Below, one piece after another: positions 20,803-43,016 of a stretch of 64,000 bases of DNA. Each line of letters starts with the position of its first letter. Positions within the stretch are counted from its first letter, which is position 1. Source of the DNA: a virus (lineage: Duplodnaviria; Caudoviricetes); the IMG/VR virus record IMGVR_UViG_3300032247_001693, positions 1 to 64,000 of that record, one strand, 5' to 3'. The notes under the pieces are model-generated. The model was not told where the DNA came from, ran no database searches, and worked only from the letters and a program-made list of their open reading frames with translations. Position numbers and translations under genes: made by a program.

Positions 20803-21489
20803 CTTTCCTCCAGTACCATATCAAAAGTTTCCCAAAAAATAGTATTTGGTATCCATTTAGAGTTTTATAAACATTTACCATATACCGTTTCCTAGTGTAA
20901 GTATACCATAGCGGCGTTTGATTGTCAAGACTACTACCAATAGGACTCTTAAAATGAGCAAATTTTTAACATTTATATTAGTGGTGTTCGTGGGCTTCTT
21001 TTATTATAATCTCTATTTAAACGAAAATATAAGCGTTGGACGGGGTGCTAGAACAAATTATAAGAATAGTATTGGTAACATAGTCTATACCAATATTAAA
21101 ACTAATCCTATGGGAGTTATTACCTATAAATAATTGTTCCCATAAAACTCACTGACTATAACCACTCTAACCAAATCTGGTGGATAAGCTAAAACAATTC
21201 ATCAGCCACTTTTACAATCTACCATCTTTAAAGGAACCCCTAAAGTTCGCTGACTATACCCAACTAGCCCAAACCCCGTGGGTTAGCTGGAACAATCGGA
21301 TAGATTACCTACCAGATGATCATTAAACAATTATTTTAGACTTACATCAAGCTCACTTTTCATAAGTATATTTAGAACTTGACCTAAACCCTTACCAGCA
21401 CACACCTTACGTTCTATTGTATCGGCACTTACGTCAAGTGTCTACAACCTAAGATTGAGATTGAGTCAAAGAAAAGAAAAGGCTTGACA

Positions 21490-21567
21490 TAACCCCTTGA
21501 GAAATAAGGACTTACATAAAATCGGGGCGCCCGCGTTTGAGCTAAGTCCTTTGTTTTCAAGTACTTA
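21490..21567. repeat. Double-palindrome element, copy 1
   Basis: TAACCCCTT-gagaaat-AAGGACTTA-N28-TAAGTCCTT-tgttttc-AAGTACTTA. Confidence 0.9.
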
Positions 21568-21574
21568 CGTCAAA

Positions 21575-21648
21575 CGAGAGTGACGGGACTTGAACCCGCA
21601 ACCTTTGGGTCGACAACCCAACGCTCTAACCAATTGAGCTACACCCCC
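21575..21648 (-). tRNA. tRNA-Asp(GTC)
   Basis: Cloverleaf read by hand; anticodon arm ttggg-ttGTCga-cccaa; T-loop ttcaagt; no encoded CCA. Confidence 0.9.
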
Positions 21649-21653
21649 TAAAA

Positions 21654-21725
21654 AGCAGGAGAAGGGACTTGAACCCTCAACATTCAGGTTGGAAACCTAA
21701 CGCTCTGCCATTGAGCTACTCCTGC
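21654..21725 (-). tRNA. tRNA-Gly(TCC)
   Basis: gcaggag/ctcctgc acceptor stem; anticodon loop ttTCCaa. Confidence 0.9.
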
Positions 21726-21728
21726 AAG

Positions 21729-21802
21729 TAATCCTGGAGGGACTTGAACCCCCAACCTAGTGGGTAGAAACCGCTTGCTCTATCCAGTTGAGCTACAGGA
21801 TC
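21729..21802 (-). tRNA. tRNA-Arg(TCT)
   Basis: gatcctg/caggatt acceptor stem; anticodon loop ttTCTac; one anticodon-stem mismatch. Confidence 0.85.
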
Positions 21803-21912
21803 ATATTCTATATAGTACACGAAAATTTACTTTTGTCAATCTACGCGGGACATGGTTAGTCCCACCGCACCCGGCCTAAAGCCTGTTTATACTCGCCGGG
21901 TCGAGTTGAAGA

Positions 21913-22173
21913 TCAAGCCTCCGCAGTTTCAGCAACAGCCTTTTTCTTAGGCGGATTGGCCGCATCACCAGCCTGAATCGCAGTCACACCAGTAACACGG
22001 GCACGCCACACCTTATAGCCCTGCTCACTCAGTTCCTTGATCTCTCCCTGCTTCACATTGGCATGAATGTCATTGCCAAGGTTGTCATTCAAAGCCGTAG
22101 TCAACACATCCACAATCTCACTACGATCAACATCTGAACCGACCAAATCAACCGTAAAACTAAACCTCTTCAT
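21913..22173 (-). CDS. Hypothetical protein
   Basis: 86-aa ORF with an upstream Shine-Dalgarno-like sequence and cassette promoters. Confidence 0.65.
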   Translation of the reverse strand: MKRFSFTVDLVGSDVDRSEIVDVLTTALNDNLGNDIHANVKQGEIKELSEQGYKVWRARVTGVTAIQAGDAANPPKKKAVAETAEA

Positions 22174-22381
22174 TTGTAAAAACCTTTCAAAAAGTGTAAA
22201 CTATCCAAAACTCACAACGTCATTATACAACATCAATATCACTTGTCAAGGTCGCTTAGATGATTTTTCATTTTGAGCATCCAGTGCGATCCATTCCTTG
22301 TGATGAGTGTATTGTACACTACTAGTATCGACAAGTCAAGCCCGCAGCATTAGCCTATGGTGAAAAATTTTGGGAACGTCG

Positions 22382-22459
22382 TAACCCCTTGAAAAATAAG
22401 GACTTACGTCAAAACCGGCCGCCCCGGCTCGCCGCAAGTCCTTGTGGGTAAAGGACTTA
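22382..22459. repeat. Double-palindrome element, copy 2
   Basis: TAACCCCTT-gaaaaat-AAGGACTTA-N28-CAAGTCCTT-gtgggta-AAGGACTTA. Confidence 0.9.
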
Positions 22460-22478
22460 CAGCAAGTGGGGTTTTGGG

Positions 22479-23432
22479 CTAGATGCCGCTGGCAAACTCC
22501 ATAGCTGTGGAGAGAGCCTTGGCGTTGTCGTTGGCGTTCTGGCCGAACCAGAGCGAATCCAGCCGATTGTCGCTTGTGCGGCCCTTATTGTAGTTCAGAT
22601 ATTCGTTGTAGCCGTTGTAGGCTGCCCACCAAGTACCCCGAACACCTTCGCCGCTCTGCTTCGGGCCTTCGATCAGACCCAAGATTTCATCCATGATATT
22701 GCGGGTGCGGGTTTTGATGTCCGCATCAACAGTACCCTCAATATCCATCATCTTTTTCACATACCGATTGATATCGACCTGATTGAAATTCTTAGACGCG
22801 AGGAACTTGAACTGTTCCGCCGTGGCCTCGAATTCCATATTGATATTGTCCATGATATCCCGAACGTTTTCCAAATTGATCTTGCTGGAACGGGTATGGC
22901 GAATCCGAATCAGCTTAGAACCGCTCGTCTTGCTGTGGGCCATTGCCATCGTGTTAGCACACACCACCCGGATGGGGGTATAACCAACCCGGATAGCAGT
23001 GGTGCCGTCATGGCTGTTGGAAAGCAAGATGAACTTGCTTACCTCATCTCCACGCACGATCTCGCTGTTATCCCGATTCAGCTGGGCGAGAACCCAAACC
23101 TTTTGCCCGCTGTGGAGCGAACCAGCAGTGTGCAAGGCACACTCGCCAGCATCGATAAACGGCTGGAACCAATCGAACGCTTCGCTATTTTGCAGCGGCG
23201 TATAGCGTGGGCCGACAACACCCAAAATGCTATCGTCACTCTTGCGATAGGTCGCCCGAGCCGGAACCGGCTGACCATCCGTGGTGAACAAATCCTTCAG
23301 ACCGACTTCCCAATCCAGACCGCCAGCGATGATCGCCTCCCCAATCGTGGGGGCTTCGTCGAGCTTGTTGCCCAGACCGTGCCACGGGGTTTCCTTGACG
23401 TAGAACATGTTTTCGACAGCGTGAGCCATTTT
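22479..23432 (-). CDS. DUF932 / TIGR03299-like phage-plasmid protein
   Basis: MAHAVENMFYVKETPWHGLG, GQKVWVLA, LLSNSHDGTTA, TPIRVVCANT and W.AYNGYNEY motifs are characteristic of DUF932. Confidence 0.85.
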   Translation of the reverse strand, partial: KMAHAVENMFYVKETPWHGLGNKLDEAPTIGEAIIAGGLDWEVGLKDLFTTDGQPVPARATYRKSDDSILGVVGPRYTPLQNSEAFDWFQPFIDAGECALHTAGSLHSGQKVWVLAQLNRDNSEIVRGDEVSKFILLSNSHDGTTAIRVGYTPIRVVCANTMAMAHSKTSGSKLIRIRHTRSSKINLENVRDIMDNINMEFEATAEQFKFLASKNFNQVDINRYVKKMMDIEGTVDADIKTRTRNIMDEILGLIEGPKQSGEGVRGTWWAAYNGYNEYLNYNKGRTSDNRLDSLWFGQNANDNAKALSTAMEFASGI

Positions 23433-23530
23433 CAATCTCCTTAGTGGTTTCAATCGTTCTCTTGTCTCATCATTCTACCCTAGTATCGTCCAAAGTCAAT
23501 GGCTGAGTTTAGGAATTTTTGCGATTGCTC

Positions 23531-23608
23531 TAACCCCTTGAAAAATAAGGACTTACGTCGAGCCGGGGCGGGCGCCTTCGCCCTAAGTCTTTTGCGGCAA
23601 AGGGTTTA
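23531..23608. repeat. Double-palindrome element, copy 3
   Basis: Same 9-7-9/28/9-7-9 geometry. It overlaps the 3' end of the PRTase ORF. Confidence 0.9.
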
Positions 23609-24086
23609 GGTATGATGCCTTAAATTCTTTGGCAAAGTCTATAGGGTGTGGGGCATAGACGCATTCTTCTGGGAGATAGCAGTAGACTCCAAAGCATTCA
23701 CTTCTAGCACAATTTTCTTTCATGCTAGTCAGAATATGCCTAATGGTATTTCCACTACAAATCAAATCATCCACAATTATGTACTTTCGTGGAACAACGC
23801 CCTCAATGAAAAAATTAGAATATCTTTCTTCATTTTCTTTTCGAGCCACAACAATATGTTTTTGTAGAATCTCGCTAATCTGTGGTACAACCATCAAACC
23901 ACTTACCCCACAACAAACAATGCTATCAAATTCTGTGGTAATTTTTCTTAAATCACAAACAGCTTTGATAATTACCTTGTTGCGAATTTTATGGTTTAGC
24001 ACCATACTAGTATGTGATGCTCCTTGAATGATCTTCCCGTCAGGTGTTCGCCTGAAACCATCAATTTCTTGAGAGATAGTATTCAT
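23583..24086 (-). CDS. Type I phosphoribosyltransferase-fold protein
   Basis: PRPP-binding loop YIIVDDLICSGNT; SGL...ARK upstream motifs. Confidence 0.8.
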   Translation of the reverse strand: MNTISQEIDGFRRTPDGKIIQGASHTSMVLNHKIRNKVIIKAVCDLRKITTEFDSIVCCGVSGLMVVPQISEILQKHIVVARKENEERYSNFFIEGVVPRKYIIVDDLICSGNTIRHILTSMKENCARSECFGVYCYLPEECVYAPHPIDFAKEFKASYLNPLPQKT

Positions 24087-24310
24087 GATACTTCCCTAAC
24101 TAGGTGAGTGTTCCTTATTTTAGAACGTAATTCTCTAGCCATTACGATTTCATTTTCTAACTTTTTAAGATAATCATCATTAGAATGTGAAAGACTATTA
24201 ACATAATCCCTCTTTGTCGCAAAAATAAATTGACTAAGAACATTAGCTAACAAATCTTTTTCTTCTGCTAAAATATCCAAAATCATTTCAAATTCCTTTA
24301 AAAAAATAAG

Positions 24311-24386
24311 TAGGGGAGGCGGGATTCGCACCCGCGATCTCTAGCTTATGAGGCTAGCGAGGACAACTAGACTCCTCTACTCCCCG
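24311..24386 (-). tRNA. tRNA-Met(CAT), initiator-like
   Basis: Anticodon arm ctagc-ctCATaa-gctag; C1 is unpaired with position 72, as in fMet tRNAs. Confidence 0.8.
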
Positions 24387-24407
24387 TCAGTGAAATTTTA
24401 AACTTAG

Positions 24408-24481
24408 TGGAACCTCTGGGGATCGAACCCAGAACCCTCGGATTAAAAGTCCGATGCTCTAACCAGTTGAGCTAAGGTTCC
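24408..24481 (-). tRNA. tRNA-Lys(TTT)
   Basis: ggaacct/aggttcc acceptor stem; tcgga-ctTTTaa-tccga. Confidence 0.9.
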
Positions 24482-24900
24482 TCCCTATAATTCTATCACA
24501 ATCAACACACTCTGTCAATCCTATCAGTCAACAATTTTTTGAAAATCATCAACCGTAACCGTAAAACCTTCTCTCTCCAATACAACCCCTTCAGATGGTT
24601 CTACGGTATTTCCAAAGATAATTTCAAAAACTTTATATGGTTCAGACCAATAGTTCTCGTGGCTATTGCAGTCAGTATCTGCGTAATTATCTCCGTCTTC
24701 AACAGACATAAATCCATCGTACTGTTCAATCAAACATCTCAAATCTTCCAAAAAGTTTTCTTTTGTCAACTCACTCATTCTTATCTCCTCATTCCAATCA
24801 TTCTACTACAATATTATCGACCTGTCAAGACCAAAACTTTAAGAATTCTCGCTGACTACAGCCAACTAGCCAAAACCGACAGGATTAGCAAAAACAAAAA

Positions 24901-24973
24901 TGACGCTACTGGGAATCGAACCCAGATTGACAGATTGAAAGTCTGCTTTCCTGACCATTTAGAAGATAGCGCC
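24901..24973 (-). tRNA. tRNA-Glu(TTC)
   Basis: ggcgcta/tagcgtc acceptor stem; gcaga-ctTTCaa-tctgt. Confidence 0.88.
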
Positions 24974-24981
24974 AAAAAAAG

Positions 24982-25052
24982 CAAAGGCGGAGGGAGTCGA
25001 ACCCTCATCCACGGTTTTGGAGACCGTCATTCTACCGTTGAACTACGCCAAT
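24982..25052 (-). tRNA. tRNA-Trp(CCA), acceptor stem with mismatches
   Basis: acggt-ctCCAaa-accgt; normal T arm; acceptor attggcg/cgccttt has two U-U mismatches. Confidence 0.75.
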
Positions 25053-25125
25053 AACATCAGCCTCCGAAGCACTCCTATTATACACAATCTATCGGTATTG
25101 TCAATGCCAATTCTTGAGCTAGTCC

Positions 25126-25203
25126 TAAAGTCTTGAGAAATAAGGACTTACGTCGAGCCGGGGCGCCCGGTCTAGCTCTAAGTCTTTTGTTTTCAACACT
25201 TTA
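25126..25203. repeat. Double-palindrome element, copy 4
   Basis: Same geometry; core ccggggcgcccggt. Confidence 0.9.
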
Positions 25204-25208
25204 CGTCA

Positions 25209-25281
25209 GGTGGCTAGTGGGATTTGAACCCACAACCTACAGGATCACAACCTATCGCTCTGCCAATTGAGCTATAGCCAC
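25209..25281 (-). tRNA. tRNA-His(GTG)
   Basis: gtggcta/tagccac acceptor stem, C73; atagg-ttGTGat-cctgt; the genomic -1 base is T, not G. Confidence 0.88.
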
Positions 25282-25283
25282 AG

Positions 25284-25370
25284 CGGAATATGAAAGAATC
25301 GAACTTTCACCGGTTTTACCCGGCCAATTTTAGCAAAATTGTGCAGCGAACCAGTATCTGCCTATATTCC
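25284..25370 (-). tRNA. tRNA-Ser(GCT)
   Basis: caatt-ttGCTaa-aattg with long variable arm gccgggtaaaaccggt. Confidence 0.88.
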
Positions 25371-25464
25371 AAATTTTCTATCTATAAGCTGTGAGGGTCA
25401 GAGTCGGACTGACATTGACCAAATTAACAGTTTGGGGCATTACCATTATGCTACCTCACAATAA

Positions 25465-25537
25465 ATACCCAGGTAGGATTCAAACCTACAACCTAGGGAA
25501 CCAAAATCCCTTGCTCTATCAGTTAAGCTACTGGGTA
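25465..25537 (-). tRNA. tRNA-Gln(TTG)
   Basis: tacccag/ctgggta acceptor stem (U1-A72); aggga-ttTTGgt-tccct; atypical T-loop tttgaat. Confidence 0.75.
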
Positions 25538-25765
25538 AAACTACCTATCTCTATGACTTCCACTATCTTTTTTACTTTCTCTCAAATATTTAGAAGCCTC
25601 AATCAACCAATACCCCATCATTTCTAGCTTTTCAGCCTCTTTACCAGTTAGGTAAGATGCTACATGAATAAAGGCATACTCAATTTTACCCTTAGAAACA
25701 ATCTCTAAGGTTCCAAATGTTGGATCACTAAATTTTTCTGGTTTATCCATAAAGTCTCCACCTAA

Positions 25766-25838
25766 AGCCGATGATCAGAGTCGAACTGATGACAGGCAGT
25801 TTACAAAACTGCTACTCTACCAACTGAGTTACATCGGC
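25766..25838 (-). tRNA. tRNA-Thr(TGT)
   Basis: gccgatg/catcggc acceptor stem; gcagt-ttTGTaa-actgc. Confidence 0.9.
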
Positions 25839-26410
25839 AACATACCTATTATAATCAATAACCTTGATCTCGCAAGTATTGTTGACGCTCACCGGAGCGT
25901 GTACGGGTTCGTCGTGGACGGGAATCGTGCGATCCGCTCCCGCTCAGGTGCGTATTGTGTCCCATTGGGAGTTCCCAACGCTTCTTGATCTTGATTGTAA
26001 CGTTCTCGTATTTGCGGCGGCTGGTCATACCATTTTCCATCTGTGTAATAGTACCAAATTTTGTCATTATTAGGATCATACGCTACATGGTACAGGTAAT
26101 AGCGTACTGATTTTAACTGATGATCGCTCAATTGTTCTGTGGTCATTACCACAGGATGATTTTTTCTATAATCCTTATACTCACCATACACCAACATGCC
26201 CAAACCAATCAGGCCCGCCACTAGTTGTACCACATACTGCTTCATCTGTCAAGTTCTCCTTTAAGATATTTATCGGCAGTCTGGGGTGGATTCTTGAGGA
26301 ATTGGGTAGTGAAACTCGTAAATTGGGTAGCAAATTGGGTAGTGGGGAGGGGTTTTCCCGAAAGGGCTAGTTTCCGATGACGGAAAATGTGGTTTTAAGG
26401 AAAACTGATG

Positions 26411-26488
26411 TAAGTCTATATGGGTTAAGGGTTTAGAGCGAATCCGGCCCGCCCCGCTCGCCCTAAGTCCTTATGGGACAAGGGTTTG
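26411..26488. repeat. Double-palindrome element, copy 5
   Basis: Same geometry. Confidence 0.88.
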
Positions 26489-27161
26489 CGGCAAGTCGGC
26501 TATTTCCCGCCAACAGGATAGTTATAATTGTATGTATCTAGATCAATTTCTGTATGATCATATTCCTTATAACGTTTACATCTTTGGCAGTAGCAAGATA
26601 ATGTGGTAAGGAAAGTACACTCTGTTGGTGTATGATTTGTGGTATTTTCACAATTAGCACACATAAATACATGTCTTACTGCACGATCATCAATTTGTCG
26701 CCACATATTAAACTCCTAAGAAATTGTCCATTTAGCTTGTCTTACTACTGCCTCTGTGGGCAACACGATAGTATCGGGTTGGGCTGTTGAATAATCTCGA
26801 AATCCCCGTTCGTCAAGATAGAAGTTCTCATGAAGAGTATCATCTTTATTACTTTCCCATAGTACATCCGCCGCTGCTTCTAGTGGAGGTTTATCTGTAC
26901 TATAGATTAGGTGAAGGGTGCCCGATTGAATGTAATACTTAGCCATTATTCATAATCTCCTCTAGATTGTTAATCAAAAGTTGAATATCTTTAGAAAAAG
27001 CGGGCTCTTGAGCTTGATTCAAATCTCTATACAAAGTTAGAGCATCTAGAATAATAAACATATCATGTTTTTCAATATGGTAGTTCATTTTAACCTTTCA
27101 ATGGTTGGAAAAAGTCACCCCTCTATGTCAATTTGGTGTATATAAACATAAGGAGATTACT

Positions 27162-27749
27162 ATGAAAAAAACGCCACAAGATCAGATAGATCGTAATGTC
27201 AAATGGGCCAAAAACAACTCTAATAAGGTTCGTGAATACAAAAGAAAATATAAACAAGAACAAAAAGAATTATTGAAACAATATGTTAAAGAAACTAAAG
27301 AGCATAATGGTTGTAAAATTTGTGGTTGTATAAATATTAATTGTTTAGATTTTCATCATCGTATTGACTCCAATAAAAAAGATACTATTTGTAATCTCGT
27401 TAGACATGCTTATTCTTTATCTGTAGTTAAAGAAGAAATCGAAAAATGCGATATAATCTGCTCTAACTGTCATAGGACTCAACACTATACTGGTAGATAT
27501 ATGAGAAATAAAAAGAATATTAAAATTCATAATCTTAAACAGAGAAGTAAATGTTTACACTGCGGATGTAATAAAGTTGAATGTTTAGATTTTCATCACT
27601 CATCAGACAAAACAGATGGCATAGGTTCGATGATTAGAGATAAAATGATATCTATAGAACAGTTAGAGACAGAGATAAAGAAATGTATTATACTCTGCTC
27701 TAACTGCCATAGGATACTTCATTCTAATGACAAGGGAAAAGAACATTAG
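27162..27749 (+). CDS. Tandem double HNH endonuclease (probable homing endonuclease)
   Basis: Two CxxCG...CLDFHH...C.I.CSNCHR..H modules. AAGGAG Shine-Dalgarno precedes ATG 27162. It is the only well-supported plus-strand gene in the minus-strand region. Confidence 0.8.
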   Translation: MKKTPQDQIDRNVKWAKNNSNKVREYKRKYKQEQKELLKQYVKETKEHNGCKICGCININCLDFHHRIDSNKKDTICNLVRHAYSLSVVKEEIEKCDIICSNCHRTQHYTGRYMRNKKNIKIHNLKQRSKCLHCGCNKVECLDFHHSSDKTDGIGSMIRDKMISIEQLETEIKKCIILCSNCHRILHSNDKGKEH

Positions 27750-28430
27750 GCTTATTTCCATCCAAACACATTTTACAGGCTTGTCCCTCTTTAGTACCAG
27801 TACAAGTTACAAAATCCCGACCCTTACGAATTTCTGGACATGTTACAAACTTCTCACCGTGTAATACAACCAGTTTTGGTAGTGCTTTTCTCCAGATATC
27901 AGCCTTAATCTTACTCTTAGGCCGCTTAGGAGCAATCTTTTGGTCACTATCGCACCATGCGAATTTAGTAAATCCCTTACTCTTAGCAAGATTCATATCG
28001 TGTTCATTATGAATACTAGCAAAGATAGAAAAATACTTACTAAGTGCCACCAGCCTTGAATCATACACATGAGTATAAAACCACATATCGGGTAGTTCGA
28101 TACCATCAGAAATAATACTCTCACAGGCCCATGTTACATTCTCTACAAATTCAACGTCAAGTTCCCCATTTTTGTACCAATCCCCACGTTCCATGAAACG
28201 AATACTTTTATCTTTTTTGATAGCGTCAAGTATCATGGCCCGAATACGATTCTTTTCAGTAATCATATTAACAAAACCAGCCACCCGAGCATTTTTATAC
28301 TGTCTCTCTGTTGCTTCCGCATAACAGCCATTATCTAGAAATACGCAAGATGATGGACAGGTGTCGCCAACTGGCCTACTAACTACCAGACAATTCTTAC
28401 CTAACTTATCGTTACCGTTTGCAACTTTCA
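27724..28430 (-). CDS. Cys-rich phage protein (gp88-like)
   Basis: GNDKLG...PVGDTCPSSC...GCYA, WFYTH and C-terminal C...C..C motifs resemble phage gp88-type proteins. Confidence 0.5.
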
Positions 28431-28507
28431 TGATCTTTTTCTCCCTTGTGTCCACTGATTATACAGTAGATATCGGCACTGTCAAGGGGGATTCTTTAAA
28501 AAATCTT

Positions 28508-28523
28508 TGGCATGATATTTGCT
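28508..28523 (+). promoter_or_regulatory. Sigma54 (-24/-12) consensus site
   Basis: TGGCAT-GATAT-TTGCT matches TGGCAC-N5-TTGCW. Confidence 0.6.
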
Positions 28524-28578: not shown

Positions 28579-28656
28579 TAAGTCTATATTCTATAAGGAC
28601 TTACAACAAACCGGGGCGCCCGCCCTTGAGCTAAGTCTTTTAGCAGCAAGGGTTTA
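28579..28656. repeat. Double-palindrome element, copy 6
   Basis: Same geometry. Confidence 0.9.
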
Positions 28657-29231: not shown

Positions 29232-29309
29232 TAAAGTCTTTAAGAATAAGGACTTAGGAGAAATGGGGCCGCCCGCTCTTGACGTAAGTCTTTACGTTCT
29301 AAGGCTTTA
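29232..29309. repeat. Double-palindrome element, copy 7
   Basis: Same geometry. Confidence 0.9.
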
Positions 29310-30749: not shown

Positions 30750-30827
30750 TAAGTGGTTATTCTGTAAGGACTTACGGCGATCCGGGGCGCCCGCCCTATC
30801 CCTAAGTTCTTTAAGGATAAGGACTTA
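30750..30827. repeat. Double-palindrome element, copy 8
   Basis: Same geometry. Confidence 0.9.
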
Positions 30828-31908: not shown

Positions 31909-31986
31909 TAAACTGTTGACAAATAAGGACTTACATCAAAACGGGGCGCCCGTCCTCGTCGCAAGTCCTTATGCGACAAGGGTTTG
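31909..31986. repeat. Double-palindrome element, copy 9
   Basis: Same geometry. Confidence 0.9.
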
Positions 31987-32463: not shown

Positions 32464-32541
32464 TAAATCCTCATAGAATAAGGACTTACATCAAAACGGG
32501 GCGGCCCGGCCCACCCTAAGTCCTTATTAGATAAAGACTTA
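32464..32541. repeat. Double-palindrome element, copy 10
   Basis: Same geometry. Confidence 0.9.
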
Positions 32542-33076: not shown

Positions 33077-33154
33077 CAACTCGTTGAAAAATAAAGACTT
33101 ATGTCGAGCCGGGGCAGCCTGCCTTTCTCTAAGTCTTTTAGAGATAAGGGCTTA
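33077..33154. repeat. Double-palindrome element, copy 11
   Basis: Same geometry. Confidence 0.9.
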
Positions 33155-33513: not shown

Positions 33514-33591
33514 TAACTCGTTGAAAAATAAGGACTTACGATAAACCGGGGCGCTCGGCCTTGATCTAAGTCCTTTAGATTCAAGACCTTA
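33514..33591. repeat. Double-palindrome element, copy 12
   Basis: Same geometry; the stop of ORF 33594-33995 lies 3 nt from the element edge. Confidence 0.9.
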
Positions 33592-34372: not shown

Positions 34373-34450
34373 TAAAGTGTTGAGAAATAAGGACTTAGGG
34401 CGAAAGCGGGCGCCCCCGTTCGCCCTAAGTGCTTACACACAAAGGGTTTA
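34373..34450. repeat. Double-palindrome element, copy 13
   Basis: Same geometry. Confidence 0.9.
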
Positions 34451-34460
34451 CGGTTAGCTC

Positions 34461-36250
34461 TTAAAGATAGTGAGCATCACACCCAATATCCCGAAGTTGA
34501 GTAGCCACACGATGCCCAATATGATAGTCAGCTATTTCCATAGAGTTAGGCTTTCCATCTTCATATCCACTATATCGATAGTCGCCACAAGATCCACCAC
34601 GAACAACATCACAGAACTTTTTAGCTTCATATAAGCTAGTTCCGGCTGTGTTACGAATAATCCTAATAGCATTAATAAATTGATCTGGAGGAATACTTTT
34701 CAAAATTAATGTTGCACACCTAGAAAAACTATCGATGGGGGGAATAGAGCATTCTGCTGGCGGTACACTAACAATAGCATCCTCCAAAGCTTTCAACAGC
34801 TTATTATACAGATCATCACAACTAGTGCTTTCAATAATAGCAACGATCTCTTTTACCGTCAAACTAACATTAACCATTTTTTCTATCTCCTAATTTTGAA
34901 TCATTCACAATAGTTTGAAAATCTTTTGCAAGAGCAGTCCAATCGTCCCGTTCGATCTCTGGGTGGTCAAAATAAAAATCGTCAAGAATTTCTGCTGCTG
35001 TTTTTGGAAACGCCCAATCAAACAACGACATAAAACCCTTTAGTAGCCAACTCACTCCCCACCTCCTAGCCTTGCAAGCATGTTGCGGAGAACGGCCACG
35101 CCCCAGCCCATTTCGTGAAGCTGTTCAATCACAGCTTCAATCGCATCCAGCTCCTCCGGTCGCAGCCGTAGCCGCTCCACCTCTGCCCTCAGAAATTCAA
35201 TTTCTTTAATAGTCTCTTGAATCAACTCATACTCAGTTTTGTCTCCATAGAGCTCCCAAACATTATTACATGTCCAAATTGATTTCAGCATGTCAACAAG
35301 ATTATTAACGTCAGTCATTCTTTCTCTTCTTTGTGTATGGGCGGGATTTTTGTTATTCTCGCTATGGCTAACCCGCATTCCCACAGATCAGTTGGGAGCT
35401 ACCCAACCACTTTGTGTCACCAATATAGCATACGTTCTTGGTTTGTCAAGCGTACAACACCGAATGAATCGGATTTTCGTTGGTGACTTTTTATTGCAAG
35501 GGACGGGTGGGTTCGTTTCAACAATGCGTTAGCATCTCCACTGACCACCTACTCTACTACCGGCTTAGTAGCTAGCAAGCATCGTGAGCCACTCAAGTGG
35601 CCTAGCAATCCCTTTTGTATTGTCAAGATAAACGGTTCACCTCATCGGAATGCGCCTGCGCCTCCTGCTCCCAATATTCAGCGGCTCGCCGCAGCCGCTC
35701 CACCTCTAACCTGAGAGATTTAATCTCTTTGATAGCCTTTTGAATCAACCTATACTCAATATGATTACCACCACATTCATAACATGAAGATAATCCAATG
35801 AAATCAAGTCTATCTACGATATCTTTAACGTCATTCATTTTTATTCCAAGCCTCCAAATTAGTTTCTTTCTCCAGAATCTTTGACAAACTATTCATCCAC
35901 TCATTTGCAGACTTCATAGCATCAGGTCCCATAGTAGTCATGATCCAATGCCATTCGCCTTCGCAATTAGCCAACACAGACCAACAATCAGCACCGTTTT
36001 TTTCTATCTTCAGCAACATTATTTTCCTTTTCCTTTTCTAACCAAACATCTCGTACTCTTCATCAGTCAACGCCACCTCATCTGGACGATAACATCCGTT
36101 ACCATGCAAATCACGATTAGTAGGACGCTTTTCCCACTCATCCATAAATCGCTTGTTTTCAATACGACGCTTTTCTTCTTCATTCTTCTCTATCATTTGT
36201 CTTCCTCTTTCTTGTTCTATCATTCTACACCTATCATCGGTAGTTGTCAA
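34461..36250 (-). other. Cassette of small hypothetical ORFs, including paralogs 35052-35330 and 35623-35838
   Basis: Both paralogs share M.DV..(I/L)VD.L...LIQ..IKEI..LR.EVERLR. Confidence 0.6.
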
Positions 36251-36280
36251 GCCCCCTCTTTAAGAAAAATGCGTTTGATG

Positions 36281-36358
36281 TAAGTTGTTGAGAAATAAAC
36301 ACTTAGGACAAATCGGCCCGCCCGCTTTCGCCCTAAGTCCTTTATGGACAAGGGTTTG
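36281..36358. repeat. Double-palindrome element, copy 14
   Basis: Same geometry. Confidence 0.88.
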
Positions 36359-36367
36359 CGGTTAGTC

Positions 36368-36664
36368 TCAAAAATCCCCATCATCTAGGTGCCAATCATC
36401 GGGTTGGTCGGCATCACACCCATAGCCCCCAAAATCGTCATCCCCGTAGCTCCCGTAGTCCTCATCAGTGCCAAAACCGGCACTTGATAGGGCGGATTCG
36501 TGGTCGCCGTCCATAGAATCATCATAATCTTCATCCTCATCATCCCAATCACAATCATCATCTTCCCAATCGTCATCTTCATCCCAATCATCATCATCAT
36601 CATCAAAATAGCCCTCAACTTCGTTTTCGTAGTCGTAGTCGTGAAGGGGGTCAGGATGGCTCAT
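36368..36664 (-). CDS. Very acidic low-complexity protein (D/E/W/Y-rich)
   Basis: DDDWDEDDDWEDDDCDW repeats and a SMDGDHESALSSAGFGTDEDY motif; possibly a DNA-mimic or decoy (inference). Confidence 0.65.
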   Translation of the reverse strand: MSHPDPLHDYDYENEVEGYFDDDDDDWDEDDDWEDDDCDWDDEDEDYDDSMDGDHESALSSAGFGTDEDYGSYGDDDFGGYGCDADQPDDWHLDDGDF

Positions 36665-37008
36665 CTTAAAAACTCCAAAGGGTTAGGACTGATGGATGTA
36701 GTATACCGGGACAAAAACAATTGTCAAGAGGTCTGATACTCGTATGGTACAAATTCTTCAACGATCCCCACAGCTTCGGCCCAATCCCAAAAATTGATTT
36801 CAAGATTAGGATCGTCGATAGGCTCGACCATCATCTCAAGGATAGAATCATCACCCAACTGATTCAGCACCAGATTCATTTCATCCAAATTGAACATAGT
36901 AGAATTCCTTGATAGGGTTATCGGCCTGATGAAATCATTCTACTAAGTATATCGACAAGGTCAAGAGCATCCCCTTAAATATTTTTCTTGCAATATCTTA
37001 AGGTAGCG

Positions 37009-37086
37009 TAAAGTCTTGAAGAATAAGGACTTACGTCAAAAGCGGGCGCCCGCCCTAGCTGCAAGTCTTTTGCAGATAAGGACTTA
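37009..37086. repeat. Double-palindrome element, copy 15
   Basis: Same geometry; the stop of ORF 37090-37461 lies 4 nt away. Confidence 0.9.
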
Positions 37087-37089
37087 CGT

Positions 37090-37461
37090 TCAGTCTTCAA
37101 TTTCGCGGAAAATTGAGATTTCCAACCCAGATGCCATAATGGCAGCATACTGTTCGACCATAGCTGCCACTCTGTCAGATGATCCCGGCTTGCCAACTGG
37201 CAGCAACATTAGGTCATCAGCGTTTTTCAGTCTCTTATTGACTTTTTCTTTCTTGCTGGTAGAAATTTTCTTCAAGGCTTTTTGATTGAACTTCAAAACT
37301 TTTTCCGTAACCAACACCCTCTTTCGGGTGGCTAGTTCACAAGAGTAGGTTTCATCCTCGATTACCAGATGGTCTGCAATCTCAACCATATCGGGAATCG
37401 CTAGACCCAGGAAACAATTGCGGGCCTGCCGCTTTGCTCTCTCAACAATCTCAAATTTCAT
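37090..37461 (-). CDS. Hypothetical protein, paralog of 39005-39322
   Basis: MKFEIVERAKRQARNCFLGLAIP versus MKFAIVENAKRQARNCFLGIAIP. Confidence 0.75.
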   Translation of the reverse strand: MKFEIVERAKRQARNCFLGLAIPDMVEIADHLVIEDETYSCELATRKRVLVTEKVLKFNQKALKKISTSKKEKVNKRLKNADDLMLLPVGKPGSSDRVAAMVEQYAAIMASGLEISIFREIED

Positions 37462-37804
37462 CGTAAAATCCCTTGTGAAGTTAGAACTTGTCTCGATATT
37501 CTACAGGAAGATTCAAGCCTTGTCAACCTTACAATACCGCAAGGTTTACGCATCTTCCCACTTATGTTCGGACTGATTATAAATCTTCACCTGCTCAACG
37601 CCGGTCTTCACCACCACCGCTTTGCGAACATCCATCCAATCCTTACCCGAAAACGGCCCAAGATACTTGCCATCGACGGTGAACACGCAGAAATTCTTGA
37701 CTTTCATATTTTTCTCACTGGGTTTGGTTTTGGTACTCATGTCATCATTATACACTCTTATCGGCATTTGTCAATAGCGATCTTGAAGAATTTTGATATT
37801 GATC

Positions 37805-37882
37805 TAAGTTGTTGAAAAATAAGGACTTACGACGATCCGGGGCGCCCGCCCTTGCCGCAAGTCCTTTGAGGCTAAGGGTTTA
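37805..37882. repeat. Double-palindrome element, copy 16
   Basis: Same geometry. Confidence 0.9.
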
Positions 37883-38847
37883 GGAGCGATGTAATTTTGG
37901 GTCGTTTTTTGAGCCACGATAGAAACGATCACGGGAAGCTTCCGCCATCGGGCAGGAAAATCCCATTTTGTTTCTCCACCGGAGCAAACTTTTGATAGCT
38001 GCCCCAGTTTCACCATTAACTACATCTTCTGTCACAACAATAGTACCGTCTTCAACTTTGACCAGAGCAACTAGCGTCTTACCCTGTTGTGGACGCACCA
38101 CAATTGTCAAGCCATTAGAGGCCCGATCTATTTCGCATTGTCGAAGTTTCATAGGCCACCATTAAATTGCCTTATTGATTTTGTGATAAAGAGCCTTCAA
38201 TCTCTCTAATTCATCCTCATAAGAAACATTTGTTTCTTTGGTACTATACTCATACGTCTTAAGAATCTCAACCTTTTTCATCCGCGACATAACAGACATA
38301 CTCAGGTCAAACAATTCAGAAGGACTAAACATTACCAACTCCTTTTTAGGTTACTTACTACTATATCGACATTTTACCCTGTAGATTCCAGTTTGTCAAG
38401 AAAAATCTTTCCTTGCAAAACCTACAGATTAACCCATCTTCAACAGACCCCCTATTCTCGCTGACTATACCACATAGCCGCAAATCCGGAGGATTAGGAA
38501 AAACAATGAAGACCCCCCCTTCAGACCCAAGCCACCGCCCAAAACCCCCAAACCTCCCAGACTACCCAACTACCACAACCACCCCAACTACCCCAGACTT
38601 CCTAGAATTCATATCCTGTATAGCCTTCACAGTATACGGGAGCATAGTTCACCTAATTGATAAGGATTGCAAAGATAATTCCGCAAATCAGACAAATCCC
38701 CAAAATCGCCCTATCTTTCCTACTCATCCTATTTCCCCTATCTTCTATTAGTTTTCCAATCTGCTTCTATTACCATATATCGTCCATTTTACCATCCAAA
38801 CTTGAACTTGTCAAACCTTAAAATTTCGTAAGGTAGATCATTCGTCG

Positions 38848-38925
38848 TAAGTGCTTGAAGAATAAAGACTTACGTCAAGGTGGGGCGGCCCGTTTTGCTC
38901 TAAGTCCTTATTTTTCAACACTTTA
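38848..38925. repeat. Double-palindrome element, copy 17
   Basis: Same geometry. Confidence 0.9.
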
Positions 38926-39004
38926 TGTCAAGTGCTAAAACTAGTGGACAAAAGACCACCACCCCCACCAGAGAGGTAGTGTACATGCTTATCCCCCGTT
39001 GGGG

Positions 39005-39322
39005 TTATGCAACCTCCCCAAAGGCGGAGAGTTCCAACCGAGCCACCACACCATATTGAGCGGCCAGCAGTTCAACACGCTCACGCGAACCGGGGAGAGT
39101 ACCACCAGCAGAAATCATGAGATCATCACCCCTACTCATGCGGGGGTCATTCTTGACCTTTGCAACCTTGCCAGCATTCTTCAAGGCTTTGCGATTGAAC
39201 TTCAAAACCTTCTCAACCACCACCATCTCTCCGTCGATGTTCTTAGCTTCGGAAGGGATAGCGATTCCCAAAAAGCAGTTACGGGCTTGACGCTTGGCAT
39301 TTTCTACGATTGCAAACTTCAT
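39005..39322 (-). CDS. Hypothetical protein, paralog of 37090-37461
   Basis: Direct alignment; the start was trimmed to MKFAIV. Confidence 0.75.
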   Translation of the reverse strand: MKFAIVENAKRQARNCFLGIAIPSEAKNIDGEMVVVEKVLKFNRKALKNAGKVAKVKNDPRMSRGDDLMISAGGTLPGSRERVELLAAQYGVVARLELSAFGEVA

Positions 39323-40182
39323 TTTCACATCCTCAAGGTTTCTCATTCTCATACCCCTATTATACAGGGGAGTTTTGGAATTGCAAGCACAAAGTTTCCT
39401 TAAATTTTCGTAAGGTAGTCGAAAGCTCTGGAAACCGCAGTATCCAAAAACCCCCGCACAATCTCCCCACCAGCCTTGAAAACTTCGTGTACGGTGTAGG
39501 TGAGGAATGCACAAAAGGTCAGTATACAGGTGATCATTACGATATCGTAGAGCATGTTTTCCTCTTAAGCTACTTTGATGAAAATTTCGACTACGCCAGA
39601 CTTCGTTGACAGTGTGACCAGAAATTTCCGACCGCTACCATCTTCAATCCTCATACCATTTACCAAACCAATGAATGGCATATCTACTGAATCATACAGC
39701 AGAATTTCATACCGACCACGCATAGCCTCTACAATATCGCTCAAAAGATAGACCTTGCGAATCGAGCGGGGTACTACAGTGTTCATTTTTCTTTTTCCTT
39801 TTTCTCTACTGGTTATATCGTCATTATACAGGGGAAACTTTAGTTGTCAAGTCCTATTCACCATCATATCCGACATACCAAATCTCACCTTTTTCATCAG
39901 CCATTTTCTTGAATCCCTTTTTTGCCATGTGACGATCTTGAATGAAATTATCTACAATTCCAAAAGCCTGAGCCATCAGCCAGAAGCCTACCGTCATGGA
40001 AAGATAGATGGTGGCAATCAGAGCGATCCAGCAGAGAGCAATTATGAGGCTTGTCATTTTCTTATTCCTGTTTTTTCTTTTCCCTACGTCTTATATCGTC
40101 ATTATACAGGCTTTTCTTTAGCCGTCAAGCATATTTTCCAGAATTTTCGGAATATAATTTCATGCCAAACATAATTTTTCTT

Positions 40183-40217
40183 TGGCATGTTATTTGCTCT
40201 TTGCAAAAGTTGTGCCA
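40183..40217. promoter_or_regulatory. Head-to-head sigma54 consensus pair
   Basis: TGGCATGTTATTTGCT (+, 40183-40198), 3-nt gap, TGGCACAACTTTTGCA (-, 40202-40217). Confidence 0.7.
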
Positions 40218-40242
40218 AACTCAAAAAAATATGGATTCGACG

Positions 40243-40320
40243 TAAGTGCTTGAAGAATAAGGACTTAGAGATAGCCGGGGCGGGCCGATTCGACGTAAGT
40301 CCTTTGGTGGTAAGGGTTTA
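40243..40320. repeat. Double-palindrome element, copy 18
   Basis: Same geometry. Confidence 0.9.
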
Positions 40321-40421
40321 CGTCAAGTGGCCTTTTCGCATCCCTCGTCCGTGGGGGTAGTTCCACCATAAGGCAGATCTTCCCCCCGGCTGGGGAGTGT
40401 ACGTTTGGTTACCCCCCAAAA

Positions 40422-40652
40422 TCAGTAGTAGATAAAATCGTTGACGATATTTCCTGCAATGTCAACCCCGATGAATTCATCCTCATCATCGCATGGGAAA
40501 AAATTCCTGATTTCCATTCCACTACCAAAAGCTTCAACCAAAAGAGCCCCACCAATACGGGCGATTCCCACCAGAGTATCGGGAGAGGAAGAATCTTCCC
40601 CATAGAGCAATTCATTCAGTTCGGCACGGGTGTTGATGGTGATCATTTTCAT
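40422..40652 (-). CDS. Hypothetical protein, paralog of 42287-42514
   Basis: MITINTRAELNELLYG...DTLVGIARIGG versus MITINNRTELNEILYG...DTLVGVARFGG; both end (N/D)D(F/C)IYY. Confidence 0.75.
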   Translation of the reverse strand: MKMITINTRAELNELLYGEDSSSPDTLVGIARIGGALLVEAFGSGMEIRNFFPCDDEDEFIGVDIAGNIVNDFIYY

Positions 40653-41040
40653 TTTTCCTTTTTCTACTGGTCTTTTCTCTTGTGTTTCAATTATACAGAG
40701 TATATCGTCCCCTGTCAAGCCCCCACCTTAGAAAAATATCGGACAAATTCCAGCCGAATATCTTCACGATTGAAAGGGAATTTTCCGTTGTAGGTATCGT
40801 TCCACATCTTCTCTACCATTGGCATAGCATCCATCCAAGTTTCGGCTGTTACGAATCCGAAACTCCACTCGCCACGGGAGGTTGCGACCAAAATCTCAAA
40901 TTGAATTTCATTTTTCATTTTCATTTCCTTCTCTTGTGTTTTCCCTGTCATGCTTTCATTATACAGAGTATATCGGCAGTGTCAAGAAAATTCTGGAATA
41001 TTTTTGAAATATAATTTCGTGCCAAATAAAATTTTTCTTG

Positions 41041-41075
41041 TGGTATGATATTTGCTAGTAGCGAATGCTGTGCCA
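41041..41075. promoter_or_regulatory. Head-to-head sigma54-like pair
   Basis: TGGTATGATATTTGCT (+), 3-nt gap, TGGCACAGCATTCGCT (-). Confidence 0.6.
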
Positions 41076-41135
41076 AAGTTTCCTTACAATTTCGTAAGGT
41101 TGGCGCAACCCCATCAGTTTAGCTAATACTAGACG

Positions 41136-41213
41136 TAAGCTCTTGAGAAATAAGGACTTAGGTCGAGCCGGGGCGCCCCGTTTTGACGCAAGTCCTTTGG
41201 TGGCAAGACTTTA
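41136..41213. repeat. Double-palindrome element, copy 19
   Basis: Same geometry. Confidence 0.9.
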
Positions 41214-41647
41214 CGTCGAATGGGTTTTGAGTAGTGAACAACCATACAGACCACCCCCCAAATAGGGTAGTGTACAGATGATCACCCCGCCTTAGATATA
41301 CTTCTTGACTCCCCACTTGTAAGCAGTGATACGCTTACCCTCAATTCTCACCTTCCCAGTCTTCTTACTAGTGATCCTCAATTCTGCCTTGCTACCATCA
41401 GCACAATCAGCACAACGGTAGTAGACATCAAATCGATCATCCTTGCTCCAATTGATCACGATCATGCTGACATCCTCATTACGCAGGATGAAATTTGTGG
41501 TAGTACGATTGATGCTGCTATTCATGGGATCGAATCCTAGTAGGTTAATGGGTCTCTCACCATTCTACATTCATTATCGTCTATCGTCAAGCCTCCCCAA
41601 TAAAAATTCTTCAAATATAATCTTGTGCCAAAAAACCTTTTTCTATT

Positions 41648-41682
41648 TGGTATACCATTTGCTCTATGCAAGTATCGTGCCA
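41648..41682. promoter_or_regulatory. Head-to-head sigma54 consensus pair
   Basis: TGGTATACCATTTGCT (+), 3-nt gap, TGGCACGATACTTGCA (-). Confidence 0.7.
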
Positions 41683-41707
41683 AACCGTGAAAAATTTTCA
41701 TTTGACG

Positions 41708-41785
41708 TAAGTGTTTGATACATAAGGACTTAGAGCTATCCGGGGCCGCCCGATTTGACGTAAGTCCTTTATTCATAAGGGTTTA
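41708..41785. repeat. Double-palindrome element, copy 20
   Basis: tttgacg-TAAGTGTTT-gatacat-AAGGACTTA-N28-TAAGTCCTT-tattcat-AAGGGTTTA-cgtcaa. Confidence 0.9.
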
Positions 41786-42286
41786 CGTCAAGCCTGTGTT
41801 CACTACTGTACATACCAACACATACGCCCCCCATTAGGGGAGTGTACGCTTGGCTACCCTGCCATGTGGGGGTTGTGTCAGCCCCCCTCATCTTCGGGCG
41901 ACCAGTCTACATCGTCAGGATCAACACCATCAAAAGCGTCAAGATCATAAACGTCCCCATCCTCAAAATTCTCAATATCCTCATCACCATCCTCAAACAC
42001 CACATCACAATGTTCCCAGCAGCAGGGACACAACTCAAGATCGGCCACATCTATCACCACCTCTACACCACAGCATTCGCTCTTCATTGTCTTATTCCTT
42101 TTCCTGAGCCTGCAATTCGATAACCAATTTCCAGCACACATCAAACGTCACATGACGGGCCACTACCTTGCCACCGTACCACACTTCATATCGGTCGCCC
42201 GTGCGATTTGAAGTATTCCAGTAGATCATTTTTTTGCTCATTGAATTATTGTAGGGAAATTTTCTAGCCCTGTCAACCCCCCAAAA

Positions 42287-42514
42287 TCAGTAGTAGATGC
42301 AATCGTCAACCACGATTCCGTTCGCGTCAACTTCAATCCATTCACCTTCATCTCCCATTGGGAAGAAACCAGTGATCTGGCGGAAATCAGTTTCCAAAGC
42401 TTCGGAGAGCAATTCTCCACCAAAACGGGCGACACCAACCAAAGTGTCATAATGTTCGGTAGTCCCACCATAAAGGATTTCGTTCAGTTCGGTGCGATTG
42501 TTGATGGTGATCAT
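42287..42514 (-). CDS. Hypothetical protein, paralog of 40422-40652
   Basis: Direct alignment. Confidence 0.75.
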   Translation of the reverse strand: MITINNRTELNEILYGGTTEHYDTLVGVARFGGELLSEALETDFRQITGFFPMGDEGEWIEVDANGIVVDDCIYY

Positions 42515-42650
42515 TTTCGTTGTCCTTTTTTCTATCGTTCTCTTCTCTTCTTCTACCATTATACAGACTCTATCGACGCTTGCAAGCAAAATCTTGAAAA
42601 TTTTCAAAATATAATTTCGTACCAAATAAAAAAATTTTTTTCTATCCGAA

Positions 42651-42719
42651 TGGCACACAATTTGCTCTATGCAAAAGTTATGCCAAACAAAATTATTCCG
42701 TTTTGGCACAAAATTTGCT
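42651..42719. promoter_or_regulatory. Sigma54 consensus cluster (pair plus a third site)
   Basis: TGGCACACAATTTGCT (+, 42651), 3-nt gap, TGGCATAACTTTTGCA (-, 42670-42685), and TGGCACAAAATTTGCT (+, 42704-42719). Confidence 0.72.
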
Positions 42720-42738
42720 AGCGCGGATCGATTTGACG

Positions 42739-42816
42739 TAAAGTGTTGATATATAAGGACTTAGAACGAGCGGGGGCGTCCGGATTTGACGTAAGTCCTT
42801 TAGATATAAGGGTTTA
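42739..42816. repeat. Double-palindrome element, copy 21 (last)
   Basis: Same geometry. Confidence 0.9.
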
Positions 42817-43016
42817 GGTCAAGTCCCCACCTAAAGGGGGGTTTTTTCATTCTAGATAAGCTGGGCAATTTAGGCAGGAAAAACGCCGGGTGGTCTACAC
42901 ATAACAAGCCCATCCCCTATAAATTAGCCAGTTTAATAGCCACTTTCTTTAAATAAAAAAAGGCAAGGCTCCTCCTAAGAACCCTGCCTCTTTTAAAACA
43001 GTACAATCTATTAACT

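Follow-up and report, generated by a model that had tools for sequence, protein, structure and literature searches.

What purpose is served by a rigidly spaced repeat that recurs at the boundaries between the early gene cassettes of a phage? The question is raised by bases 1–64000 (hereafter the window) of the 87,995-bp IMG/VR virus record IMGVR_UViG_3300032247_001693 (G000), in which 21 copies of a four-box, doubly palindromic DNA element divide a region of minus-strand genes into cassettes. In this study, the anatomy, surroundings and distribution of the element were analysed computationally in the record, in related viral contigs and in planctomycete genomes. We consider, with a probability of roughly 55%, that the element is a paired docking site on double-stranded DNA for a host, probably planctomycete, origin-associated DNA-bending protein, set in register with the early promoters and serving also as a cassette boundary.

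Architecture and copy number of the element

When the copies were cut out at all 21 starts listed in a preliminary description of the window, each showed the arrangement box1(9)-N7-box2(9)-N28-box3(9)-N7-box4(9) with zero indels, confirming the 7/28/7 spacers reported there. The four boxes occupy 78 bp, or about 92 bp with the flanks, and all copies are confined to 21.4–42.9 kb of the record. The lone half-site that had been placed at 18286–18310 (strand unassigned) is real: it is a single palindrome, CAAGGTCTT-N7-AAGGACTTA, with 2 mismatches to the pattern. A scan of the remainder of the 87,995-bp record, extending the survey to the whole genome as had been proposed, returned zero further copies beyond the 21 and the lone site. 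In the window, TAAGTNCTT-N7-AAGGACTTA (up to 3 mismatches) has 73 matches, against 0.36 expected from shuffled sequences.

Read along the minus strand, the 21 copies give (c)TTGACG-TAAACCCTT-N7-AAGGACTTA-28 nt-TAAGTCCTT-ATTTnTC-AAnnAnTTA-CGTCAA. The outer boxes retain TAA....TT alone, whereas the inner boxes, AAGGACTTA and TAAGTCCTT, are near-invariant. The flanks are of the SGNCRA type and mostly mix the CGTCAA and GGGCGA types, so that the two 39-bp palindromes first described are approximate palindromes and lack exact symmetry. Each element comprises two 25-bp dyads, TAAnnnnTT-N7-AAnnnnTTA, whose centres are 53 bp apart (about five helical turns) and between which lies a palindromic core of G and C alone, centred on the dyad of the whole element (GGGC/GCCC in the window phage, GGCC/GGCC in most relatives). 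The promoter-proximal N7 is often identical among copies, reading GAAAAAT, GAGAAAT or GAAGAAT.

Cassette layout and helical phasing of promoters

Every gene of the region, including 12 tRNA genes, lies on the minus strand. In 14 of the 21 copies the preceding unit ends, with a stop codon or a tRNA 3′ end, 2–11 nt from the element; beyond the element come an AT-rich tract of the AAAATTTTT type (UP element) and then a consensus sigma70 promoter, TTGACA-n4-CGATA-...-TATAAT. Promoters were called at a sigma70 score of at least 10 of 12; one occurs 20–45 nt past the element in 15/21 copies and within 100 nt in 16/21, and nearly every cassette carries a consensus promoter of its own. These counts agree with the placement first described, namely behind a stop codon or tRNA and ahead of the next promoter.

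The distance between element and promoter also follows the helical repeat of DNA. Of 210 copies, 149 have a sigma70 promoter of this score on one side and not on the other; measured from the edge of the element to the −35 hexamer, the distances in these 149 copies peak at 20, 30–31, 41–42, 51–53 and 61–64 nt. The Rayleigh R of this phasing is 0.53–0.56 at periods of 10.5–11 bp, with a nominal P of about 1e-17 that is inflated by kinship among the copies. When the copies are aligned by the direction of their promoters, a polar consensus results, TnGnCG-TAAnnCCTT-N7-AAGGACTTA-GGGCnAG-core-TTnGnCG-TAAGTCCTT-ATnTnnC-AACnACTTA-CGnCAA. Spacers that are rigid in length and free in sequence, polarity and promoter phasing are together properties of protein–DNA recognition.

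Folding of the element as RNA or single strand

RNAalifold gave −0.5 kcal/mol and zero compensatory pairs for the 21 copies. Among 210 non-redundant copies, Watson–Crick complementarity of mirrored positions did not exceed the expectation under independence in box2:box3, box1:box2, box3:box4, box1:box4 or the central flanks; box2 and box3 vary independently in the relatives, where AAGCACTTA is often combined with TAAGTCCTT. The 28-nt spacer folds no better than its shuffles (minimum free energy −7.9 vs −8.3 kcal/mol). A terminator scan of the elements stayed at background, with 13 found against 12.2 expected. The G+C-rich hairpin and U tract that define an intrinsic terminator were not found in the element: T averages 2.4 in the 8 nt after the core, the T-rich N7 is specific to the window phage and is not conserved in relatives, and the G/C-rich core is without selection to fold. 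Rfam returned no family match to the element, only tRNAs and a Pistol ribozyme. The element is a double-stranded DNA module, not an RNA or single-stranded DNA hairpin.

Conservation among related phages

An exact scan for box2-N28-box3 found 50 stretches on about 45 IMG/VR viral contigs of 10–244 kb, all with the four-box architecture. Across 482 kb of related loci, 206 inner spacers measure 28 bp, against 3 of 27 bp and 1 of 29 bp; of the spacers within dyads, 374 measure 7 bp and 11 measure 6 bp. Five large relatives (105–244 kb; two complete with terminal repeats) carry 12–18 copies each, clustered within 15–22 kb, and the number of dyads per phage genome is 24–42. In 185,579 prokaryote genomes the inner pair has 17 matches, approximately the chance level; the full unit is present in 2 of the 17, both on single short phage-like contigs of metagenome-assembled genomes (MAGs; G007 and G008).

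None of 50,697 phage records matched an 8-kb query in a megablast search. Literature searches on the 9-mers of the element returned unrelated primers only, and searches on planctomycete oriC and on IHF with phage early-promoter repeats returned nothing on the element. A gammaproteobacterial MAG contig (CAVUSA010000003.1, 1.67 Mb; L058, L060 and L068) holds at least 3 copies of CAAAACA-AAGGACTTA-N28-TAAGTCCTT-ATCTGTC-CGGAATTTACGTCA, with a variable, partly self-complementary 28-nt insert. This hairpin repeat differs from the element and is unrelated to it.

The palindrome at planctomycete replication origins

The single palindrome TAAGTCCTT-N7-AAGGACTTA (up to 1 mismatch) occurs at 15 sites in 14 of 301 Planctomycetota genomes, against 1 site for the reversed control and about 1 expected. 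In 201 Pseudomonadota genomes, 1 palindrome site against 5 control sites corresponds to chance; this phylum was used instead of a first control phylum, that of G007, whose genomes of 0.5–2 Mb left it underpowered. The host sites are AT-rich intergenic islands in genomes of 52–72% GC. One dnaA–dnaN spacer (L092) contains four dyads, and another site precedes dnaN (L091). Two lie among iteron-like direct repeats, next to genes for a DnaB-like helicase (L086) and a Prim-Pol/AAA_25 protein (L089), a setting read as that of mobile-element origins. Sites are also found where an IS66 transposase gene ends (L085) and 28 bp ahead of a sigma54 promoter (L095). The neighbourhood of a sigma54 promoter is not general among host palindromes (1 of about 25).

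The association with origins is clearest in the planctomycete order that includes G191, where 12 of 16 primary dnaA loci carry 1–3 dyads (17 sites, the reversed control having 3) and none is found at loci of the second dnaA paralogue. In 5 primary dnaA loci the dyad lies between inverted, DnaA-box-like TATTCCACA 9-mers exactly 53 bp apart; such pairs flank the palindrome in dnaA–dnaN spacers at L124:1163–1225, L119:1164–1226 and L118:1977–2039. The 9-mer of the palindrome was itself considered as the planctomycete DnaA box and rejected, since separate TATTCCACA boxes flank the palindrome. We note that the 53 bp between the host TATTCCACA boxes is the same distance as that between the two dyads of the phage element. 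Conservation of the palindrome at host oriC therefore implies that a host protein reads the dyad at replication origins.

The phage host is probably a planctomycete. This assignment is supported by a gene combining DUF1559 with an N-methylation motif, which the window phage and G002 carry and none of 14 control genomes does. In the window it encodes a 369-aa DUF1559 (SBP_bac_10) protein with a prepilin N-methylation motif, a planctomycete signature (43352–44461, −). The gene looks recently gained and host-derived because it is absent from the close relative L029.

Cassette rearrangement at the elements

Cassette order was compared among six genomes. It runs 1, 2, ..., 15 in the window, 2, 3, (4), 5, 1, 12, 6, 7, 8, 10, 11, 14, 15 in four relatives and 2, 3, 1, 12, 5, ... 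in G002; whole element-to-element units (cassettes 1, 5 and 12) have therefore moved, and elements have been gained or lost between cassettes 6, 7 and 8. Against L029, a contig 91–98% identical, a breakpoint falls in 4–5 of 7 orthologous elements. The core of copy 14 is replaced there, a 287-bp gene-sized indel begins 4 nt past the distal edge of copy 16, and one element is a hybrid, with its promoter-side box1 to box3 from copy 18 and its distal N7b, box4 and flank from copy 20. The crossover between copies 18 and 20 lies inside the shared GACGTAAGTCCTTT, and the N7 at the crossover dyad differ (TGGTGGT vs TATTCAT). Further indels between the window phage and L029 lie away from the elements, e.g. 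at the DUF1559 gene. The variable cassette order with breakpoints inside the element that the preliminary description had proposed to look for in relatives was thus found, in the order of the six genomes and in the hybrid and replaced elements of L029.

Profile searches for tyrosine and serine recombinases (PF00589 and PF00239) found none above the cut-off in G000, G002, G003, G004 (complete) and G005 (complete), in line with the earlier failure to recognise one in the window; G005 has one sub-threshold 24-bit match. The elements are hot spots of recombination, for which homologous exchange between identical boxes is the simplest explanation, and the shuffling fits an exchange like that of the promoter-early stem-loop (PeSL) cassettes. 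Because all boundaries carry the same 9–14-bp boxes, cassettes would be moved, deleted or replaced by general homologous recombination.

Proposed function and candidate binding protein

On the docking-site reading, each dyad would be a high-affinity site for a dimeric host DNA-binding protein. The UP element and sigma70 promoter of the next cassette would be in helical phase with the bound and presumably bent module, which could shape the upstream DNA around RNA polymerase and tune the promoter. It could also form a compact nucleoprotein block just after the previous stop codon, a place that has no hairpin terminator, and this block would separate neighbouring strong transcription units. Because the module would be in register with the promoter, both promoter tuning and unit separation are possible. 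Cassette shuffling by homologous recombination between boundary boxes, which is partly shown by the rearrangements above, would be a side effect. Among the first proposals was that the elements are a set of sites bound by a single protein, serving as insulators or for control; this proposal fits the rigid geometry, the absence of covariation and the promoter phasing, and we infer the binder from the host sites.

Each dyad is likely bound by a host protein, judging from the palindromes at planctomycete origins, and the leading candidate for this protein is the IHF-like DNABII homodimer of the host. Two DNABII genes, one HU-like (as at L147:1495–1767) and one IHF-like (as at L150:1381–1827), were found in each planctomycete genome tested, and a search for DNABII proteins in the phages found none encoded. 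A single IHF-like paralogue would act as a homodimer, which would suit a symmetric site. All four boxes contain an unvarying AA-N4-TTA; a C stands before AA in 50–69% of outer boxes and, in 12 of the 15 host sites, on one side or both. The (C)AA-N4-TTA of the palindrome matches the CAA-N4-TTR core of the IHF consensus. Textbook places of IHF are oriC between DnaA boxes, iteron origins, the ends of insertion sequences and sigma54 promoter regions. Counted from the dyad, C would be at +3, AA at +4/+5 and TTR at +10 to +12 if the IHF kinks are at 28/29 and 37/38, which we take to be their positions. The palindrome has its letters at just these distances, but only with these kinks does it fit the dyad register of IHF. 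In IHF, the two kinks are 9 bp apart and enclose WATCAR, TTR is part of the flank, and T44 corresponds to the central T of TTG (10.1101/382655). A dedicated origin or cell-cycle regulator fits the host data equally well.

A narrower version of this proposal is tentative, and we would not expect it to hold in all its parts: that TAAGTCCTT-N7-AAGGACTTA is the site of an uncharacterised origin-binding or cell-cycle dimer of Planctomycetes, IHF-like or other, and that a family of 100–244-kb phages has built this site, as 12–21 paired copies, into its early promoters.

Several observations weigh against a host docking site or against IHF as its reader. The host sites lack the GC core and the conserved CGTCAA/GGGCGA flanks, and phage GC, at 30–42%, is far below that of most Planctomycetota (52–72% in the loci seen). 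Six strong promoters within cassettes have no element, 5 elements have no adjoining sigma70 promoter, and kinship among the phage copies inflates the P-value of the phasing. The IHF dyad register leans partly on assumed kink positions, and a WATCAR lying wholly inside the kinks would give 9-5-9 and not 9-7-9. The inner boxes also conserve GGAC within N4, which E. coli IHF does not specify. Four sites per oriC are many for an IHF-type protein, and a cell-cycle regulator suits this number as well.

Alternative explanations

The alternative that survives best, although we regard it as unlikely, keeps the double-stranded docking module and makes its reader a phage-encoded regulator, e.g. a repressor that would time the early cassettes or turn them off, acting through global operators like KorB sites or mycobacteriophage stoperators. 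The palindromes at host oriC would then be an extra target of the phage protein or a coincidental likeness. Geometry and phasing would suit any DNA-binding protein, consensus promoters need a shut-off mechanism, and the four-box unit with flanks and GC core is found on phage contigs only, the two full matches among the 17 in prokaryote genomes being on phage-like MAG contigs. However, Pfam scans of 20 cassette proteins found no DNA-binding domain and no candidate protein, the conservation of the palindrome at oriC across one planctomycete order implies a host reader, and the core sequence of the element is identical across very divergent phages of 100–244 kb.

A role in replication is improbable. 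The elements would be a sink that titrates a host origin protein and arrests or redirects host replication, or they would be promoter-coupled phage origins or helicase-loading sites. Such roles would explain why the same palindrome marks host oriC and iteron-type origins and why a phage genome carries 24–42 dyads of predicted high affinity, but a sink or an origin needs no fixed polarity, no sigma70 phasing and no placement at every cassette boundary, and no DnaA-like boxes or iterons were noticed beside the phage copies.

Site-specific recombination, in the form of integron-like capture or of a host Xer-type tyrosine recombinase acting on the 9-7-9 cores, is highly improbable. The 9-7-9 geometry resembles tyrosine-recombinase core sites, many promoter-proximal N7 are identical between copies, whole cassettes have been translocated in six genomes, and L029 carries hybrid elements. 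Nevertheless, the partners of the L029 hybrid differ in N7 and were exchanged inside the identical GACGTAAGTCCTTT, and the five genomes searched hold no PF00589 or PF00239 protein above the cut-off, the 24-bit match in G005 being sub-threshold. The host copies are multiple and lie at oriC, not at a single dif-like site. Each cassette has its own promoter, and promoter phasing has no role in recombination. The dedicated integron- or lambda-Int-like system suggested by the preliminary description is not upheld on these grounds.

The weakest alternative, a signal in the 3′ untranslated region of the RNA (an intrinsic terminator, an RNase III or RNase E hairpin or a stabiliser, as with the T4-type PeSL stem-loops), can draw on the start of the element 2–11 nt past the stop codon in most copies, on inner boxes that could pair in the window phage with ATTTnTC following, and on the terminator activity of PeSL stem-loops with polyG/polyC (PMC2839356), but is the least probable of all given that covariation is absent in 21 and 210 copies, that box2 and box3 are independent, that the spacer folds like its shuffles, that the T-rich N7 is not conserved in relatives, that the terminator scan stayed at 13 vs 12.2 expected, and that strict spacer lengths with free sequence and promoter phasing are DNA-level features.

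Individual copies and other features of the phage genome

All 21 copies are given here in minus-strand orientation, each with its adjoining promoter and the distance to it beyond the element. Copy 1 (21490–21567) follows the 3′ end of tRNA-Asp. Copy 2 (22382–22459) has its promoter at 22339–22311 (42 nt) and copy 3 (23531–23608) at 23499–23472 (31 nt); copy 4 (25126–25203), which follows tRNA-His, has it at 25104–25077 (21 nt). Copy 5 (26411–26488) is the most divergent and is without a strong adjoining promoter, and copy 6 (28579–28656) is followed by a sigma54-like motif and then by a promoter at 28485–28458 (93 nt). Next are copy 7 (29232–29309; promoter 29201–29174, 30 nt), copy 8 (30750–30827; 30709–30682, 40 nt), copy 9 (31909–31986; 31877–31849, 31 nt), copy 10 (32464–32541; 32443–32416, 20 nt), copy 11 (33077–33154; 33045–33018, 31 nt), copy 12 (33514–33591; 33483–33455, 30 nt) and copy 13 (34373–34450; 34341–34314, 31 nt). 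Copy 14 (36281–36358; 36250–36222, 30 nt) is the one whose core is replaced in L029, copy 15 (37009–37086) has its promoter at 36964–36937 (44 nt), copy 16 (37805–37882; 37774–37747, 30 nt) adjoins the L029 indel, and copy 17 (38848–38925) has its promoter at 38814–38786 (33 nt). Copies 18 (40243–40320), 19 (41136–41213) and 20 (41708–41785) are followed by sigma54-like motifs, copies 18 and 20 being the parts of the L029 hybrid, and copy 21 (42739–42816) is the first met by leftward transcription.

Sigma54-type motifs, TGGCAC-N5-TTGCA with ATGCCAAA...TTTGGCAT inverted repeats, lie between element and sigma70 promoter in four or five cassettes (40150–40220, 41020–41080, 41620–41690, 42620–42720 and about 28500). 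A sigma54 motif abuts the element and reads into it in the relatives L009, L012, L017 and L030.

The cassette proteins are nearly all ORFans (Pfam scans, 20 proteins). GC content is 40–47% in the 22–44-kb region vs 26–36% on either side; positions 1–21000 of the window hold about 65 dense small genes (−) at 26–36% GC, with few promoters and without the element. A Pistol self-cleaving ribozyme (Rfam, 54.8 bits, gathering score 34.5) is located at 21839–21906 (−), between tRNA-Arg and an 86-aa gene of cassette 1. On the plus strand, the large terminase subunit at 48150–51242 contains a homing-endonuclease domain of LAGLIDADG or Hom_end type, probably an intein, and is followed by the portal protein at 51306–53522 and by tail-fibre-like proteins. 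A free-standing HNH/homing endonuclease is found at 56658–58370. Beyond the window, a single open reading frame of 4772 aa at 73670–87988 (+) lies in the tail-gene region, and its product would be a giant tape-measure-like protein. Minus-strand cassettes and plus-strand late genes therefore define a leftward early arm and a rightward late arm, an organisation that is not T4-like.

Significance

To our knowledge, almost no phages or regulatory proteins of planctomycetes have been characterised. If the narrower version of the proposal holds, early transcription and cassette insulation would be coupled to the host machinery of replication initiation, or that machinery would be titrated, and the phage arrays would be the best available consensus for the origin protein and a handle on planctomycete origin biology. 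The host docking-site reading, if correct, would provide a testable motif between inverted DnaA-like boxes in planctomycete origins, with the IHF-like DNABII protein as candidate binder. It would also assign these phages to planctomycete hosts and define a widespread, rigid promoter-upstream module in a large group of uncultivated freshwater phages. The module could serve as a compact insulator of transcription units in synthetic constructs for these bacteria.

Comparison with known systems

Integron attC sites are likewise four-box inverted repeats right after cassette stop codons, with variable cassette order. However, attC acts as a folded single strand with an adjacent IntI and promoterless cassettes, and none of the three holds here: mirrored boxes pair no more than expected, no PF00589 protein scored above the cut-off in five genomes, and the cassettes have their own promoters. 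Xer/dif recombination uses a single terminus site with 11-6-11 arms, whereas the host copies here lie beside dnaA/dnaN, number up to four per origin and are spaced 9-7-9.

The bacterial interspersed mosaic elements (BIMEs) of the RIP/RIB type in E. coli are pairs of repetitive extragenic palindromic (REP) units flanking an IHF site. Both they and the phage element are mosaics some 100 bp long that recur outside coding sequence at the 3′ ends of genes, combine inverted palindromic units with a site for an architectural protein (putative here) and have been proposed as boundaries of domains or transcription units. REP units, in contrast, are true hairpin palindromes of host chromosomes with variable spacing, whereas the element is phage-borne, rigid and tied to promoters.

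CtrA boxes, TTAA-N7-TTAA, occur in the Caulobacter oriC and in alphaproteobacterial phage genomes, and offer a parallel in which the motif of a host origin-binding regulator, again with an N7 gap, is reused by phages upstream of genes. The CtrA system differs in being alphaproteobacterial and in having direct or self-complementary 4-mers as sites, and we know of no planctomycete counterpart.

Closer in proposed function are the IHF sites of E. coli and its phages, which lie in oriC between DnaA boxes R1 and R5M and upstream of Mu Pe and lambda pL. In both cases a site for a host architectural protein (putative here) is placed in oriC, with DnaA boxes on either side, and again ahead of strong early promoters of phages, for which helical phase is important; the half-site reads (C)AA-N4-TTA here and CAA-N4-TTR in IHF. 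Unlike those sites, the predicted sites here are symmetric, are paired 53 bp apart around a GC core, recur 12–21 times per genome and have extra conserved letters in GGAC and the CGTCAA flanks.

The nearest relatives in genomic role are the PeSL cassettes of the T4-type phages RB49 and phi1 (Arbiol et al. 2010, PMC2839356). In both systems, repeated intergenic modules punctuate a plastic, ORFan-rich early region and combine a stop codon, AT-rich upstream DNA, a sigma70 consensus promoter and G/C runs. In both, too, recombination between copies shuffles, deletes and replaces small gene units (PMC2839356). The element thus shares with PeSLs the strong sigma70-like promoter with AT-rich upstream DNA and the recombination between copies that shuffles ORFan units, while covariation, spacer free energy and the terminator scan gave no sign of a stable terminating stem-loop. 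A PeSL is a stable terminator stem-loop at variable positions, whereas the phage element is a rigid 9-7-9-28-9-7-9 unit without hairpin signal, whose conserved part is two protein-type dyads and whose carrier is siphovirus-like and not T4-like. If the host docking-site reading is correct, a module different from the T4-type stem-loops would fill the same evolutionary role, that of a cassette boundary and recombination hot spot.

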